Translations under genes and position numbers: made by a program
DNA from: an uncultured Gammaproteobacteria bacterium
Lineage (GTDB): Bacteria > Pseudomonadota > Gammaproteobacteria > Steroidobacterales > Steroidobacteraceae
DNA: 64,000 bases
Direction of reading: 5' to 3'
Assembly: GCA_963837045.1 (NCBI GenBank)
Contig: CAWIMA010000009.1
Span: 1,267-65,266 of the forward strand
The notes under the pieces: model-generated
The model's input: only the letters and a program-made list of their open reading frames with translations
Database searches by the model: none
Told to the model about the DNA's origin: nothing
Shown: piece by piece, positions 32,813 to 62,873 of the stretch
Position numbering within the stretch: the first letter of the stretch is position 1
Layout of the letters: each line of letters begins with the position of its first letter

Positions 32813-32835
32813 AAGATGTATATATAATACCCCTT
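32813..32835. promoter_or_regulatory. NsrR-like 11-1-11 box upstream of nnrS
   Basis: AAGATGTATAT-A-TAATACCCCTT versus the proteobacterial NsrR consensus AAGATGCATTT-n-AAATGCATCTT: 9/11 and 7/11 matches. Lies between the nsrR stump and nnrS. Confidence 0.5.
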
Positions 32836-55662: not shown

Positions 55663-56292
55663 ATGGCCAGTTATACTTTGCCGGAGCTCGAATTCGATTA
55701 CGGCGCGCTCGAGCCCCACGTCTCGGGGCGAATCATCGAGCTGCATCACGGGAAACACCACGCCGCCTATGTGAAGAACGCCAATCAGACCCTCGCGCAG
55801 CTCGAGGAGGCTCGCGGCAAGGGGAGCTACGACCGCATCGCCTATCTGGAGCGCTCATTGGCGTTCAATTTATCCGGGCACATACTCCACTCCGTCTTCT
55901 GGCAATGCCTGACGCCCAAGGGCGGCGGGCGTCCTGAAGGGACGTTGGCCCGTCGGATCGACGCTGACTTTGGCTCCTTCGACTCCTTCAAGAGTCAGAT
56001 GACGGCGGTCGCAGGGTCGATCATGGGGTCAGGCTGGGCGGCTCTCGTATGGGAGCCGATCGCGGCGCGACTTCTGGTGACGCAGGTTTATGATCACCAG
56101 TCCAATGTTACACAGGCGGGGATACCTCTCATGGTGATCGATGCATGGGAGCATGCCTATTACCTTCAGTACGAGAACCGCAAGGCGGAATTCTTCGACG
56201 CGCTATGGAATGTGTGGAATTGGAGCGACATCGCCGCGCGCTTCGATGCCGCAACCACGGCGAAATTCTCGCTGCGCGGATCGGCTCGGTGA
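55663..56292 (+). CDS. Fe/Mn superoxide dismutase
   Basis: YTLPELEFDYGALEPH.S..IIELHHGKHH..Y, DAWEHAYYLQYENRK. Confidence 0.93.
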   Translation: MASYTLPELEFDYGALEPHVSGRIIELHHGKHHAAYVKNANQTLAQLEEARGKGSYDRIAYLERSLAFNLSGHILHSVFWQCLTPKGGGRPEGTLARRIDADFGSFDSFKSQMTAVAGSIMGSGWAALVWEPIAARLLVTQVYDHQSNVTQAGIPLMVIDAWEHAYYLQYENRKAEFFDALWNVWNWSDIAARFDAATTAKFSLRGSAR

Positions 56293-56503
56293 GGCGAGCC
56301 GGCGTTCACGGCCGTACAATCGTCATGACGTAATCGACGATGGCATTGACCATGGCCGTAGTCGCTGGCAGATGGCCGAACAACGCTCGAAAATAAAAAG
56401 GGCCGGTGAGCGCGCGGGTGTAAAATGGCGGCCCACCGTTGCTGCTTTCAAACGGCGACCGCAATGCTGGGGGTTTGCTAACTCAATCCTAAGGAGCAGA
56501 ACA

Positions 56504-56962
56504 ATGAGAATGCCGATATCTAGCCGACTTGTCGTCCCGGTGATCTGTGCGTTGGGCATCGCCCTTTGGGCGGGCCCGTCGCAGGCCGCGACCGTGTCCT
56601 TCAAGGTGCAGCTGTCCGGCGCGCAGCAGGTGCCGCCGGTACAAACTGCCGCCACGGGAACCGCCGACATCACCTTTGACCCGGCTACGCGCATGCTCAG
56701 CTGGACGATCATGACCAGCGGGCTGTCGGGGCCGGTCACCATGGCGCATCTGCACGGACCGGCAGCGGCAGGCAAGAACGCCTCCGCGCAGATCTGGCTG
56801 ACCAAGAAGGGCAGCCCGGTCGAGAATCCGATAAAGGGACAGGCGACGCTGACACCTGAGCAGGTGAAGCAGTTCGAGGCCGGCGAGTGGTACATCAATG
56901 TGCACACGGAATCCCATCCGGGAGGCGAGATCCGTGGTCAGGTGATGCCGCCCAAGAGCTGA
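56504..56962 (+). CDS. CHRD-domain periplasmic protein
   Basis: AAGGAG RBS, signal peptide, ..LSGAQQVPPV.TAATG.A..TFD......MAHLHGPA..G......YINVHT..HPGGEIRGQV. Track ORF 56141..56962 trimmed. Confidence 0.8.
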   Translation: MRMPISSRLVVPVICALGIALWAGPSQAATVSFKVQLSGAQQVPPVQTAATGTADITFDPATRMLSWTIMTSGLSGPVTMAHLHGPAAAGKNASAQIWLTKKGSPVENPIKGQATLTPEQVKQFEAGEWYINVHTESHPGGEIRGQVMPPKS

Positions 56963-56968
56963 CCGCGG

Positions 56969-57637
56969 CTATAGAAAATTAGCGAGAACGGCTGCGGCGA
57001 GGGCGCTGCAGCTGAGGAGCACGGCTGCGCGTGCCGGACCCGCGATGCGCGGTTGCGGTATGCCGGCCGGCAAGGTCTTCCATCCGGTGATCATCGGCAG
57101 CAGCAGGTTGTGTCCCTTGATGACCCAGTAGAGGAATATCGCCAACAGGTGCAGCGCGACCGCAGCCAGCAGCGCATCCCAAAGAATCCAGTGAAGTGCA
57201 GTGATCGTGTTCGCTACGGGTGCCGGGATCAGTTCGGTGAATGGTCCCTCGTCCGCCACATCGTTATTGACGTAAACCCCGCTCAACGTCTCCCCGAACA
57301 GCAGCAGCAGGAGAAGCAGCACCATCCATCCGCCGGCCGGATTGTGCCCGACCTGACGGTCGGGCTCGCGGCGCAACGCGTGCGCCAAGTGTCGTGCAGC
57401 GGCGCGTGGAGCAGCGAGAAAGGTCGAGAACCGCGTCGTCTCGCTGCCGAAGAACCCCCACAGGATCCGGAAAATCACCACCGTGAGCAAGGCGTATCCG
57501 GTCTTGGCGTGCCAGTCCATCCAGTTCAGCCGCCACGTGACGTAGGCGGCCACTACCAGCGTCACGGCGACCCAATGAAACAGGCGCGTGGGGCCGTCCC
57601 AGACGAGCATCTTGAGATCGGAGCCGCTCATGCCCAT
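56969..57637 (-). CDS. Cytochrome b561 / Ni-Fe-hydrogenase-type b-cytochrome family membrane protein
   Basis: VWDGPTRLFHWV, 4 TMS, GHNPAGGWMVLLLL, conserved His positions. Confidence 0.75.
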   Translation of the reverse strand: MGMSGSDLKMLVWDGPTRLFHWVAVTLVVAAYVTWRLNWMDWHAKTGYALLTVVIFRILWGFFGSETTRFSTFLAAPRAAARHLAHALRREPDRQVGHNPAGGWMVLLLLLLLFGETLSGVYVNNDVADEGPFTELIPAPVANTITALHWILWDALLAAVALHLLAIFLYWVIKGHNLLLPMITGWKTLPAGIPQPRIAGPARAAVLLSCSALAAAVLANFL

Positions 57638-59628: not shown

Positions 59629-60108
59629 CTACCGGCCGGGACGCTCCCTGGGGACCGATTTGATGGATATTTGCGCGCCTCTGGCGAGCGCGAACCGGGT
59701 AGTGACCCCGCGTCCCAGGACATCCTGCAGTGTGTGCCGATCCAGCGTCGCCATGAAATTGCGGCGCGCATCGACGAGAATCGACTTGAGCGTACACGCG
59801 GGAAGCAAAGGACAGTCCCGCCTCCCTGCACTGAGGCATTCGACGAAGTCGAAGCTGTCTTCCATGTGCCGCACGACATCACCGATGTTGATCATCTTCG
59901 GCGCACGTGAAAGCCGCATGCCGCCGCCCTTGCCCCGAACGGTCTCGATGTAGCCGACCGAGGAAAGACGGTTGACGACCTTCATCAAGTGGTTGACCGA
60001 AATCCCGTACGCGTCGGCGGTTTCAGAGATGGTGCACAATCGATCGGGATGCGCGCCGAGATAGACGAGCACGCGCAAAGAGTAGTCGGTAAACAGAGTG
60101 AGCTGCAT
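59629..60108 (-). CDS. nsrR: Rrf2-family NsrR paralog
   Basis: MQLTLFTDYSLRVLVYLG..NHLMKVVNRLSSVGYIETVRGKGGG, cluster Cys in ECLSAGRRDCPLLPAC. Confidence 0.85.
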   Translation of the reverse strand: MQLTLFTDYSLRVLVYLGAHPDRLCTISETADAYGISVNHLMKVVNRLSSVGYIETVRGKGGGMRLSRAPKMINIGDVVRHMEDSFDFVECLSAGRRDCPLLPACTLKSILVDARRNFMATLDRHTLQDVLGRGVTTRFALARGAQISIKSVPRERPGR

Positions 60109-60207: not shown

Positions 60208-60230
60208 AACATGCATTATGAATGCCTCTT
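60208..60230. promoter_or_regulatory. NsrR-like 11-1-11 box between nsrR paralog 2 and nrtS
   Basis: The reverse complement reads AAGAGGCATTC-A-TAATGCATGTT: 9/11 and 9/11 matches to AAGATGCATTT-n-AAATGCATCTT. Confidence 0.65.
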
Positions 60231-60256: not shown

Positions 60257-60547
60257 ATGCCGACGGACGAGGATGACGGAAGACAGACGTGCGCAGCTGC
60301 CGCGGCGTGCCGGCGTCCCGGCATGCTGCGCCTGATATTGCAGCCCGGTATTGTGCGATCTGCGCTGAAGGTATCGCTCGTGGTCGGCACACTGCTCAAT
60401 GTCATCAACAACGGCGCACAGTTCTGGACGGGCCACAGCGTCAGTGTTTGGCGCGTGGCTCTGAACTTCGTCGTGCCCTTCTGCGTGTCGAGCTACAGCG
60501 CCGCGCGCAATGAGGCGCAGCGCTTGGAACGAGACGCGACGCCATGA
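60257..60547 (+). CDS. nrtS: NrtS-like small membrane protein (putative nitrate/nitrite transporter family)
   Basis: ..IVRSALKVSLVVGTLLNVINNGAQFW...VALNFVVPFCVSSYSAA matches my recollection of the NrtS family. ATG 60323 (MLRLIL..) is the more likely start. Confidence 0.5.
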   Translation: MPTDEDDGRQTCAAAAACRRPGMLRLILQPGIVRSALKVSLVVGTLLNVINNGAQFWTGHSVSVWRVALNFVVPFCVSSYSAARNEAQRLERDATP

Positions 60548-60563: not shown

Positions 60564-61559
60564 TCACTGCAGACTGGGCACCGGCGCCGCCTCGGTGCCC
60601 GACGGCAGAAACGGATCGGCGAGGATCTCCGAGCTGCCGGCTCCGGCCAAAAAGGTCTGCATGCGCGCCGCCTCGACCATCTGCGGGTTGCCGCACAGAT
60701 AGACCCGCCACCCGGTCAGGTCCGGGCTGTCTTCGAGCGCGACTCCATGCGGCGTTCCGGCGCAGTACCCGTCGGCCGACGGCCCCTCGGAGATGCACGG
60801 ACGATAGCGAAAGTTCGGGTGGATCGCGGCGAGCGCGCTCAATTGCTCGTTGAGGTACAGTCCGCAGATGTCGCGGCTGCCGTGGTACAGGTGGATCCGA
60901 CCGCGGTGCCCATGGTTCAGCGCATCGCGCACGATTCCATATAGCGGCGCCAGGCCGCACCCGGTGCCGAGCAGCAGGATGTTCTGTTCAGGCCGTCCGG
61001 GAACGTAGAAGCAGTCGCCGAACGGCTCTGAGATCGTCACAGTGTCACCGCGCTGTAGATGCTCGAAGATCCAGCCGCTGACCCGCCCGCCCGGAACCCG
61101 GCGCACATGCATGATCAGCTCCTCGTCAAGCGCCGGAACGCTGGCAAGCGAGTAGTTGCGCGAGGTCCGGGCATCCATGAAAAGGCGCACGAACTGGCCG
61201 GAGCGATACTCGAACCGGCCCGGCGGCCGGATGTGCACGGCGCGGATTTCGTCGTTCAGGCCCTCGATCGCACAAACGTTTGCCTCGATGCGTTCGATCA
61301 CATCGTCGGCCAGAGCAACCTCGAGATCCTGCGTCGGGAAGCACTGACACGCGAGGAACAGCTTGCGCGCCACCATCGTGGGCGTCAGTCCCTTCTGCGC
61401 TGGTTCGGGCACGACGCCCCGTACCGCGCGCATGAGGCATGACTGGCAGACGCCTGCGCGACAGGAACTGGGGACCGTATGCCCGCGGGCCGCCAGGCAG
61501 TCGAGCACCGACTGCCCGCCGGCCTCGTACGACGATCCTTGAAACGCGACCCGCGACAT
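60564..61559 (-). CDS. [2Fe-2S] ferredoxin - FNR-type (FAD/NAD(P)H) oxidoreductase
   Basis: N-terminal plant-type Fdx (SCRAGVCQSC...LACQC), RNYSLAS (FAD) and LLLGTGCGLAPL (NAD(P)H). 11 nt downstream of the trHbN gene. Confidence 0.85.
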   Translation of the reverse strand: MSRVAFQGSSYEAGGQSVLDCLAARGHTVPSSCRAGVCQSCLMRAVRGVVPEPAQKGLTPTMVARKLFLACQCFPTQDLEVALADDVIERIEANVCAIEGLNDEIRAVHIRPPGRFEYRSGQFVRLFMDARTSRNYSLASVPALDEELIMHVRRVPGGRVSGWIFEHLQRGDTVTISEPFGDCFYVPGRPEQNILLLGTGCGLAPLYGIVRDALNHGHRGRIHLYHGSRDICGLYLNEQLSALAAIHPNFRYRPCISEGPSADGYCAGTPHGVALEDSPDLTGWRVYLCGNPQMVEAARMQTFLAGAGSSEILADPFLPSGTEAAPVPSLQ

Positions 61560-61570
61560 TCGTGCAAGCG

Positions 61571-61933
61571 TTACCGGCCGAGGACGTCCGCGCGGGTGGT
61601 TTCGGCGACCGCGGCCACCTTGGAGATGAGGTGATCGGGCACCTTCAGCTCCTTGAGCGTCGCCCCGAGATCTTCGACCACGGCATTGAAGTGCGAATCG
61701 TTGAGCCCCTTCTCGACCAGGTGCGCGTGGGCCTTTCTCATGTCCAGGCCGGTGTAATTGTTCGGACCGCCGAAGGCCATGGTCAGAAAGGATTTTTGCT
61801 TCGCCGCCTGATGGACCATGTCCACGCCGGTGAAGAACCGGCTGATGCGGTCGTCCTTCAGCACCTTGCGGTAGAAGATGTCCACCGCGGCATTGACGGC
61901 GGCTTCGCCGCCCAGATCCTCGTAAAGTCCCAT
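61571..61933 (-). CDS. glbN: Group I truncated haemoglobin (trHbN)
   Basis: From ATG 61933, preceded by AGGAGA: MGLYEDLGGEAAVNAAVDIFYRKVLKDDRISRFF.GVDM..QAAKQKSFLTMAFGGPNNYTG.DMRKAHAHL. Track ORF trimmed by 49 codons. Confidence 0.88.
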   Translation of the reverse strand: MGLYEDLGGEAAVNAAVDIFYRKVLKDDRISRFFTGVDMVHQAAKQKSFLTMAFGGPNNYTGLDMRKAHAHLVEKGLNDSHFNAVVEDLGATLKELKVPDHLISKVAAVAETTRADVLGR

Positions 61934-61967
61934 GATGCTGTCTCCTGTGTCAAAGTGGGGTCGTCTC

Positions 61968-62005
61968 GAGATGCATGCCTCGAACATGTATCTTCCGTGC
62001 ATCTT
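61968..62005. promoter_or_regulatory. Cluster of NsrR-like half-sites upstream of trHbN
   Basis: GAGATGCAT (61968-76), ATGTATCTT (61986-94) and GTGCATCTT (61997-62005). AACATGTATCT-T-CCGTGCATCTT scores 8/11 and 8/11, but the halves are direct rather than inverted. Confidence 0.3.
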
Positions 62006-62222
62006 ATTAAAGCGCAGATCATGCGTCTGTAAGTAGTTTCCGCAGATTTCTGCCGCCGCGCTCACCCGCGGCACATCCATTAAAAATCGCTAATGGTGCG
62101 CAGACTTGAATGATGGTGATGATTGGTCTAGCCTAAATCGTGCGATGCGGCAGGCTGGGCTGCACGCAGAGCTGAATTTTGTCGCCAATAACAAGCAAGA
62201 CGGAGCGCACTGGTCACGCGTC

Positions 62223-62873
62223 ATGGCTCAGGTGTTTCGACCCGGGCAGATTTTTGCGCTGAAATTCGGCGCGAGCATCGTTTTGATTGTGTGCGTTGCC
62301 GGCATCTTCATCTGGCGCGCCGTCATCGCCGAGTCGCCGTCCGTCGATTCCCCGGTCGCGCAGGTTCCCCCCTTCAGCCACAAACATCACGTCAGCGACG
62401 TTGGTCTCGATTGCCGCTTTTGCCATGTATCCGTGGAAACCGGGGCCTTTGCCGGCATACCGCCGACCTCGACCTGCATGACCTGTCATTCGCAGCTGTT
62501 CAAGGGACAACCGATGCTCGCTCCGGTTGCCGAGAGTCTTCGCGAGGGCCTCCCGCTGCACTGGATCCGCGTCCACCGCCTGCCCGACTTCGTCTATTTT
62601 CACCACGACATACACATCTCCAAGGGGATCGGCTGCTCGACCTGTCACGGGCGGGTGGACCAGATGCCCCTCTTGTGGCGTACCCAGTCGCTGGACATGT
62701 CGTGGTGCCTGGATTGCCACCGCGCACCGGAAAAATACCTGCGTCCGCGCAGCCGGGTGTTCGACATGACCTGGCAGCCTCCGCCCGATCAGCTGGAGCA
62801 GGGCCGCCTGCTGTCGGCGGCCTATCGGATCGATCGCCGCCGCTTGACGGGCTGCTCCAACTGCCATCGTTAG
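62223..62873 (+). CDS. actA: Alternative complex III pentahaem cytochrome c subunit
   Basis: MAQVFRPGQIFALKFG.. TM anchor, then five CxxCH motifs (CRFCH, CMTCH, CSTCH, CLDCH, CSNCH). Track ORF (TTG 62106) trimmed. Confidence 0.8.
   Translation: MAQVFRPGQIFALKFGASIVLIVCVAGIFIWRAVIAESPSVDSPVAQVPPFSHKHHVSDVGLDCRFCHVSVETGAFAGIPPTSTCMTCHSQLFKGQPMLAPVAESLREGLPLHWIRVHRLPDFVYFHHDIHISKGIGCSTCHGRVDQMPLLWRTQSLDMSWCLDCHRAPEKYLRPRSRVFDMTWQPPPDQLEQGRLLSAAYRIDRRRLTGCSNCHR

Follow-up and report, generated by a model that had tools for sequence, protein, structure and literature searches.

The DNA considered here is a stretch of 64,000 nucleotides (the window) from contig CAWIMA010000009.1 of an uncultured gammaproteobacterium, and our subject is a pair of adjacent genes within it, one encoding a small globin (glbN) and the other a ferredoxin-type reductase. 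An earlier reading of the same DNA (the original prediction) had described a truncated haemoglobin gene followed after 11 nt by a gene for a reductase with [2Fe-2S], flavin adenine dinucleotide (FAD) and NAD(P)H modules, of the class found in oxygenase reductases, and had interpreted the two as a split analogue of the flavohaemoglobin Hmp, the classical nitric oxide (NO) dioxygenase. Both genes lie where they were described, as follows:

61571-61933, minus strand: glbN, a group I truncated haemoglobin gene (120 aa, Bac_globin match, ATG at 61933)
61560-61570, minus strand: 11-nt gap separating the globin stop codon from the reductase start codon, as read in the sequence
60564-61559, minus strand: gene for a three-domain [2Fe-2S]-FAD-NAD(P)H reductase (331 aa, ATG at 61559, three Pfam domains)

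A promoter/terminator scan detected no promoter-like or terminator-like site in the spacer 61560-61570. It also detected no terminator 3′ of the reductase gene, a result for which we count the scan as uninformative.

An AGGAG motif lies 8-9 nt 5′ of the glbN ATG at 61933. The longest glbN frame opens at 62080, and the relatives of the protein, all of which are 117-125 aa long, start at the position of 61933. Domain content, structural relatives and sequence motifs together support the assignment of the product to the group I truncated haemoglobins. The protein scores 61.7 bits against the Pfam family Bac_globin (PF01152; cut-off 21), and its nearest solved structures are those of Synechocystis/Synechococcus GlbN (E 4e-36), followed by further group I globins from Tetrahymena (8e-33), Chlamydomonas (THB1, 4e-24) and Mycobacterium tuberculosis (HbN, 3e-17); group II structures match only at E 5e-8 to 9e-4. 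The earlier label "truncated haemoglobin N" therefore stands as far as group I membership is concerned, whereas the protein is closer to cyanobacterial GlbN than to the mycobacterial HbN that the label suggests.

An alignment of 48 relatives reveals invariant residues at G8-G9, F20-Y21 (B9/B10), K45 (E10), Q46 (E11), G55-G56 and H69 (F8), with Q42 (E7) present in at least 90% of the sequences. The window globin has the group I fold markers and the TyrB10/GlnE11/HisF8 pocket in common with M. tuberculosis trHbN and cyanobacterial GlbN, and a TyrB10/GlnE7/GlnE11 pocket is known from NO-dioxygenating group I globins. Both known proteins also differ from the window globin. The N-terminal pre-A extension of M. 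tuberculosis HbN is absent from it, the alignment beginning at HbN residue 14. Synechocystis GlbN has His at E10 and at residue 117, which we take to be the bis-histidine ligand and the site of covalent haem attachment, respectively, whereas the window globin has Lys45 at E10 and lacks a His opposite residue 117. Given these two differences, bis-histidine ligation and covalent attachment of the haem are unlikely in the window globin.

The reductase contains, in order, the Pfam domains Fer2 (40.4 bits), FAD_binding_6 (31.2) and NAD_binding_1 (56.6), each above its cut-off. Its solved relatives are reductases of oxygenases and P450s, with 5ogx as the best match (E 2e-43) and the BenC-type structure 1krh at 2e-24, in agreement with the class named in the original prediction. 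Residues invariant across 48 relatives are C33, C38, C41 and C71, R134-x-Y136-S137, G200-x-G202-x-x-P205, and C289-G290. The N-terminal, plant-type [2Fe-2S] domain with its four Cys, the RxYS motif and the GxGxxP motif are thus all present and fit the three-domain architecture of the BenC/MmoC type; domain order and cofactor motifs match those of BenC, MmoC, T4moF and GcoB (the protein of 5ogx) throughout. The top match among curated NCBIfam models is NF004317, "iron-sulfur-binding ferredoxin reductase" (173.9 bits, under the cut-off of 338), followed by BenC, MmoC and Fre models, and the scores on BenC, MmoC and AntC are far under their cut-offs. All of the globin-linked reductases described below likewise score best on NF004317 and under its cut-off (137-201 bits vs 338). 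Since its members fall short of this cut-off, the globin-linked clade is covered by no curated model, and its proteins carry generic names in annotation.

The original prediction had suggested counting how often such globin and reductase genes occur together, and we made this count from both sides. On the reductase side, one genome per prokaryotic species was scanned, giving 80 loci with a reductase 40-100% identical to that of the window. A globin lies directly upstream on the same strand in 76 of them and is 59-100% identical to the window globin. The loci belong to at least seven phyla (Pseudomonadota, Myxococcota, Acidobacteriota, Hydrogenedentota, Sumerlaeota, Armatimonadota and Fidelibacterota) and include Steroidobacteraceae-like gammaproteobacteria, Ferrovaceae, Methylococcaceae, Rhodospirillaceae, Caulobacteraceae, Myxococcota (Hyalangium) and a Marinimicrobia bin. 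One of the carriers, Hyalangium versicolor H56D21 (locus L032), is cultured. In 75 paired loci the two genes are -10 to 155 nt apart, most of the gaps measuring 5-30 nt; the closest relatives have gaps of 10-12 nt.

On the globin side, 400 genomes of the phylum were sampled, 82 of which hold a close globin (E 1e-27 or better). The reductase gene follows immediately 3′ of this globin in 66. Among the other 16, nine globin genes end at a contig edge (two of these verified), six genomes were verified to lack a nearby reductase, and one fell outside the check. The 66/82 adjacencies are not independent events because the genomes span just eight families, including that of the window, and one family is dominant.

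The history of the two genes agrees with these counts. A maximum-likelihood tree of 92 reductases places 78 globin-linked and nine unlinked proteins on one side and five unlinked ones, BenC-like by score, on the opposite side, with weak support for the basal branch (54). Nesting of unlinked reductases among linked ones suggests losses or relocations. Pairwise identity matrices of globins and reductases are correlated (r 0.70; none of 999 permutations gave as high a value), which fits inheritance of both genes as a unit, with a contribution from shared species history. The globin is far better conserved than the reductase (median identity 68% vs 43%). The globin-reductase pairing is not due to chance: adjacency is conserved in both samples, and the globin-linked reductases group with one another and not with an oxygenase system.

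Candidate partners other than the globin were also considered. No oxygenase gene was found in the neighbourhood of the window reductase or among the annotated recurrent neighbour clusters of the 80 reductase loci, and a place for the reductase in an oxygenase system was rejected for this reason. Ten unlinked reductase relatives from the genome sample adjoin unrelated genes (glycosyltransferase, EF-hand, LacI, FolE2, DnaX, cupin and Maf), from which no alternative partner emerges.

These observations bear on the view that the reductase mainly serves some other acceptor (an oxygenase, P450 or flavin-dependent enzyme, for instance) and that its adjacency to a globin has nothing to do with electron transfer. 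Such a view is consistent with the identity of its nearest solved and curated relatives (5ogx, BenC and MmoC, all of the oxygenase and P450 reductase kind) and with the existence of 31-42% identical reductases that lack a globin and sit beside unrelated genes. However, BenC, MmoC, T4moF and GcoB serve oxygenase or P450 partners, whereas the window reductase adjoins a globin and has no oxygenase or P450 gene beside it. The short-spaced adjacency extends across phyla, no oxygenase gene recurs nearby, and globin and reductase have a shared history. We consider a different main acceptor very improbable.

A complex of the two proteins was predicted using both alignments, haem and the 2Fe-2S cluster. 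The predicted complex scored 0.53, compared with 0.00 for the best of three controls; the runs share at least 91% of contacts, and the predicted local distance difference test value (pLDDT) of the partner is at least 86. In a benchmark of the score, the mark was attained by 58 of 80 solved complexes and two of 110 mismatched pairs, and scores of 0.60 or lower that still pass the mark came from just seven of those 80 solved complexes and from both passing mismatches. The prediction gives a small push in favour of pairing and falls short of evidence of binding.

The original prediction had also placed the pair in an NO-response neighbourhood, with half-sites resembling those of the NO-responsive repressor NsrR upstream of the globin. 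An NsrR-like gene, an NsrR-like box and an NrtS-like open reading frame (ORF) could all be located. The regulatory features are:

61983-62005, no strand: NsrR-like 11-1-11 inverted repeat, scoring 17/22 against the consensus AAGATGYATTTNAAATRCATCTT and beginning 72 nt upstream of the globin start
60208-60230, no strand: second NsrR-like palindrome (18/22), between the nsrR-like gene and nrtS
59629-60108, minus strand: Rrf2-family NsrR-like regulator gene (Rrf2 117.5 bits; NsrR model NF008240 139.9 bits)

The score of the box at 61983-62005 compares with a mean of 12 and a maximum of 14 for the shuffled upstream region, and only five sites in the whole window, this one included, score at least 16/22. 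Three of the other four, at 32813, 49070 and 60208, fall in the nnrS-nar and nsrR-nirK promoter regions and upstream of nrtS according to an earlier sequence-only annotation, and the palindrome 60208-60230 overlaps a minus-strand promoter-like site (60232-60203). The arms of the box at 61983-62005 agree with the sites that Rodionov et al., 2005 (PMC1274295) list for NsrR in supplement file 6, among them that of Legionella glbN. NsrR is the best NCBIfam model for the Rrf2-family protein encoded at 59629-60108, with RirA second (120.9 bits). This protein is probably the repressor of the glbN-reductase unit.

Similar elements recur elsewhere. Among the 75 paired loci with complete genes, on which all regulatory counts are based, an Rrf2/NsrR-like gene resembling that of the window occurs in 31, and an NsrR-like box of at least 16/22 lies upstream of the globin in 27, reaching 21/22 in Myxococcota. 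The nsrR-like gene is found in four arrangements: divergent upstream (sister Steroidobacteraceae genomes and Hydrogenedentota), downstream on the same strand (Myxococcota and Acidobacteriota), upstream on the same strand (Rhodospirillaceae and others), and in the order seen in the window. In the sister genomes (loci L013-L021), a 64-70% identical Rrf2 gene lies divergently and directly upstream of the globin. Of nine loci in which nsrR is the first gene of the operon, seven have a box of at least 15 upstream of it. Other recurrent neighbours of the pair are NarX/NarL-like genes, HPP-CBS genes and napABC, and lineages without the Rrf2 gene have NarX/NarL-like pairs (Ferrovum), HPP-CBS proteins, an HTH-MetOD1 regulator (Methylococcaceae) or, at a single locus, napABC ahead of a reductase that has no globin.

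In the best supported reading, to which we assign a probability of about 0.65, the two genes make up a bicistronic operon for a two-protein NO dioxygenase that works like a split flavohaemoglobin. As long as NO is scarce, an NsrR-type repressor would most likely block transcription; once NO damages its cluster, the repressor would leave the palindrome at 61983-62005, and both genes would be transcribed together. The ferrous oxygenated globin would then react with NO to give nitrate and ferric haem. To restart the cycle, the reductase would take two electrons from NAD(P)H onto FAD and pass them one at a time through the [2Fe-2S] cluster to the haem of its partner. Of this picture, the layout of the genes, the cofactor motifs, the linkage and the recurrence of NsrR genes and boxes are observations, and the dioxygenation of NO, the transfer of electrons between the proteins, the joint transcription and the binding of NsrR are inferences.

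The likeness to Hmp is functional in kind. Hmp also combines a globin with an FNR-type FAD/NAD(P)H module, is often controlled by NsrR, and corresponds in the proposed reaction, in which NO and O2 give nitrate and NAD(P)H returns the haem to its reduced state. In contrast, Hmp is a single polypeptide with a 3-on-3 globin, whereas the window system consists of two proteins with a 2-on-2 truncated globin and adds a [2Fe-2S] ferredoxin domain between flavin and haem that Hmp lacks. Against the Hmp model NF009805, the reductase scores 64 bits (cut-off 432), over model positions 184-387, the FNR part, only. The window pair would thus work like a split flavohaemoglobin with an iron-sulfur relay, yet it lies outside the Hmp family.

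The content of the host genome is in keeping with such a role. The host is a soil gammaproteobacterial metagenome-assembled genome (MAG) of 4.6 Mb, 93.95% complete and 6.96% contaminated, in which glbN is the single Bac_globin match. No flavohaemoglobin scored above the family cut-off in this genome (best 84.5 bits vs 432, FNR part only), and no hybrid-cluster protein (Hcp) was found in it. The window also holds nnrS-narK-narGHJI and a nirK cluster, according to earlier annotation and partial checks. With nirK and narGHI present in the window, and with a genome in which the search detected no flavohaemoglobin, the organism would rely on the unit in place of Hmp. Hmp exceeds its cut-off in 48 of the 400 sampled genomes and in 1/67 pair-holders (the window's own genome counted), a rarity that fits displacement of Hmp by the pair. 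With adjacency conserved, NsrR genes and boxes recurring in four gene orders, and no Hmp above cut-off in the host, the analogy to a split Hmp drawn in the original prediction gains support at the level of sequence comparison.

Several points weigh against this reading. Six genomes have the globin (45-67% identity) and no nearby reductase (G371, G022, G149, G004, G108 and G374), and one genome, G187, holds both the pair and Hmp. The contrast between Hmp and the pair is itself weak because the dominant family has no Hmp in any genome, whether or not the pair is present. With regard to regulation, the window Rrf2 protein scores under the NCBIfam NsrR cut-off (139.9 vs 182 bits), the box at 61983-62005 is imperfect at 17/22 with a poor centre, and about half of the paired loci have neither box nor Rrf2 gene, including those of Methylococcaceae and Ferrovaceae, which have other regulators instead. 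The score of the predicted complex falls in the weak band. Finally, we found no experimental study in the literature searched of the activity, binding or expression of any glbN-reductase pair.

The same globin and neighbourhood can be read in terms of reductive nitrogen chemistry at low oxygen, in which the pair would convert NO to N2O, nitrite to NO or hydroxylamine to ammonium, with the reductase keeping the globin ferrous. Cyanobacterial GlbN, the closest relative of the window globin, reduces hydroxylamine quickly in vitro. The surroundings are those of respiratory nitrate and nitrite reduction (nar, nirK, nap and NarXL), which is the reason for supposing a low-oxygen setting, and a dedicated electron supply would suit a reductase role equally well. 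However, the TyrB10/GlnE7/GlnE11 pocket is that of NO-dioxygenating group I globins, the E10 bis-histidine ligand of Synechocystis GlbN is replaced by Lys45, and both the predicted NsrR control and the near-absence of Hmp in pair-holders point to NO removal. Reductive chemistry is therefore an unlikely alternative to the two-protein NO dioxygenase.

A related idea starts from NO dioxygenation and closes it into a loop: NO made by NirK would be oxidised to nitrate by the pair and re-reduced by the nitrate reductase of the same gene island, with NrtS and NarK moving the anions. If true, this loop would couple micro-oxic NO turnover to energy conservation. In a related variant, activity would be gated by the reductase through its own NO-sensitive [2Fe-2S] domain. 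We regard these as speculative and improbable extensions.

NO-dioxygenase biology has long had a gap at the protein that returns electrons to truncated haemoglobin N inside cells, and a conserved, dedicated and putatively co-transcribed reductase is the natural candidate. The statement in the original prediction that this reductase has generally remained unclear is only partly fair, because a candidate has been in the literature since 2005. Rodionov et al. (PMC1274295) predicted the glbN-lpg2536 operon, which comprises genes for a cyanoglobin and for a hypothetical ferredoxin reductase, as the sole NsrR target in Legionella pneumophila, whose genome lacks hmp, hcp, dnrN and nnrS, and suggested that glbN and lpg2536 both mediate NO oxidation like Hmp. 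The review by Gardner, 2012 (PMC3820574) takes this operon as evidence for ferredoxin reductases as donors to truncated haemoglobins. The idea of a two-component NO dioxygenase is accordingly not new. A 2024 MAG study of Hydrogenedentota and Sumerlaeota also notes glbN, and its passages on glbN are silent on a partner reductase. The closest known thing to the window pair is thus a comparative-genomics prediction, glbN-lpg2536, and not a characterised system.

Compared with the published description of the Legionella operon, the window shares a cyanoglobin-type group I globin gene with a ferredoxin-reductase gene after it in a putative two-gene operon (here on one strand with an 11-nt gap), a genome in which no hmp was found and the same proposed Hmp-like NO oxidation; an NsrR-like palindrome lies upstream here too, and an nsrR-like gene nearby. 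The regulatory part of the match consists of the 17/22 putative operator and an Rrf2 gene 1.5 kb away that scores under the NsrR cut-off. There are also differences. The Legionella nsrR is divergent and upstream, whereas the nsrR-like gene of the window lies downstream, past the convergent nrtS; the window operon, unlike glbN-lpg2536, has its control region in common with a respiratory cytochrome operon; and the window comes from a nirK/nar-bearing soil gammaproteobacterium, while Legionella is a non-denitrifying pathogen. The window pair is a real and ordinary new example of a design that the literature had already put forward as a prediction, and since that prediction dates from 2005, the locus adds breadth and not a new idea. 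This breadth consists of the presence of the unit in at least seven phyla, in denitrifier-type gene islands, and almost always in genomes without Hmp. New here are the two-sided linkage counts, the four gene orders of nsrR, the reductase tree, and the recognition that no curated model covers the clade.

The remaining features of the immediate neighbourhood are:

60257-60547, plus strand: NrtS-like small membrane protein gene (NF038050 NrtS 29.7 bits, cut-off 25)
61934-62105, no strand: control region shared with the divergent multihaem cytochrome gene (divergent ORF 62106-62873, plus strand)
62106-62873, plus strand: multihaem cytochrome gene (Cytochrome_C7; QrcA-like model under cut-off)

The NrtS-like gene is convergent with the 3′ end of the reductase gene and belongs to the neighbourhood, outside the two-gene unit. 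A promoter scan counted as uninformative found no sigma-70 consensus in 61934-62105. The segment 62106-63998, divergent from glbN, contains the multihaem cytochrome gene and a QrcB-like gene of the molybdopterin family. These are consistent with an operon of the alternative complex III or Qrc type that would have its control region in common with glbN. Genes for a Mn/Fe superoxide dismutase, a CHRD-domain protein and cytochrome b561 lie at 55663-57637, within 6 kb of the unit.

Some of these neighbours could be taken to mean that the globin handles oxygen or oxidants, by buffering or delivering O2 or by removing peroxide or peroxynitrite, with the reductase acting as a methaemoglobin reductase and the NsrR link reflecting general stress. 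The operon is divergent from a respiratory cytochrome operon in the window, the superoxide dismutase gene is about 5 kb away, and peroxidase activity is reported for other truncated haemoglobins (PMC4319818). However, the neighbours that are conserved are regulators and transporters for NO and nitrate/nitrite, as opposed to oxidases or OxyR/PerR-type regulators, and the respiratory neighbour is not kept in related loci. A primary role in oxygen or oxidant handling appears doubtful and rather improbable.

Globins of this family are also found in multiple copies. In many genomes of 1.5-3 Mb from two families of the phylum sample, two or three tandem globin copies precede one reductase, for example at L094:2402-3625, L095:2716-3588 and L096:2793-3665 (genomes G149, G321 and G201, respectively). 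Alignment of these three loci reveals a consistent difference between copy 1 and copy 2, TGGP vs FGGP, at the second Gly-Gly hinge. Since same-position copies across genera are mostly more alike than copies within one genome, the duplication is likely to be old. In addition, many proteins in public collections (P0006-P0122), with lengths of about 270 and about 400 aa, consist of two or three fused group I globin domains; these are 70-81% identical to the window globin, two are named Gallionella group 1 truncated haemoglobins, and their Pfam lists contain no reductase domain. A search with the globin for longer proteins returned only tandem two- or three-globin proteins among the matches listed, a result that is mute on globin-reductase fusions because a single-globin fusion would rank lower than the tandem-globin proteins.

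Several loci show the genes in other surroundings. In two gammaproteobacterial genomes, G175 (L087:1910-5898) and G187 (L093:2961-6777), the genes for a globin and for a divergent reductase (31-34% identical) are the last of a longer same-strand cluster. They are preceded by genes for proteins of about 475, 190 and 128 aa, the latter two of which match Tll0287-like and cytochrome c families in L087. In a Methylococcaceae MAG (L048:385-4966), a reductase that is nested in the globin-linked clade and lacks a globin is instead preceded on its strand by an 850-aa gene, napB and napC.

A search of the host genome with COX1 identified one aa3-type oxidase and one 468-aa protein with a weak CcoN match (223 bits vs 583). 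The latter, a member of the haem-copper oxidase family, is encoded about 27 kb past the end of the window on contig C9 (L108:421-2796) together with a 246-aa CcoO-like partner (66 vs 201 bits). The two proteins could represent a divergent cbb3 oxidase or an NO reductase, and the identity of the 468-aa protein bears on how this organism disposes of NO.

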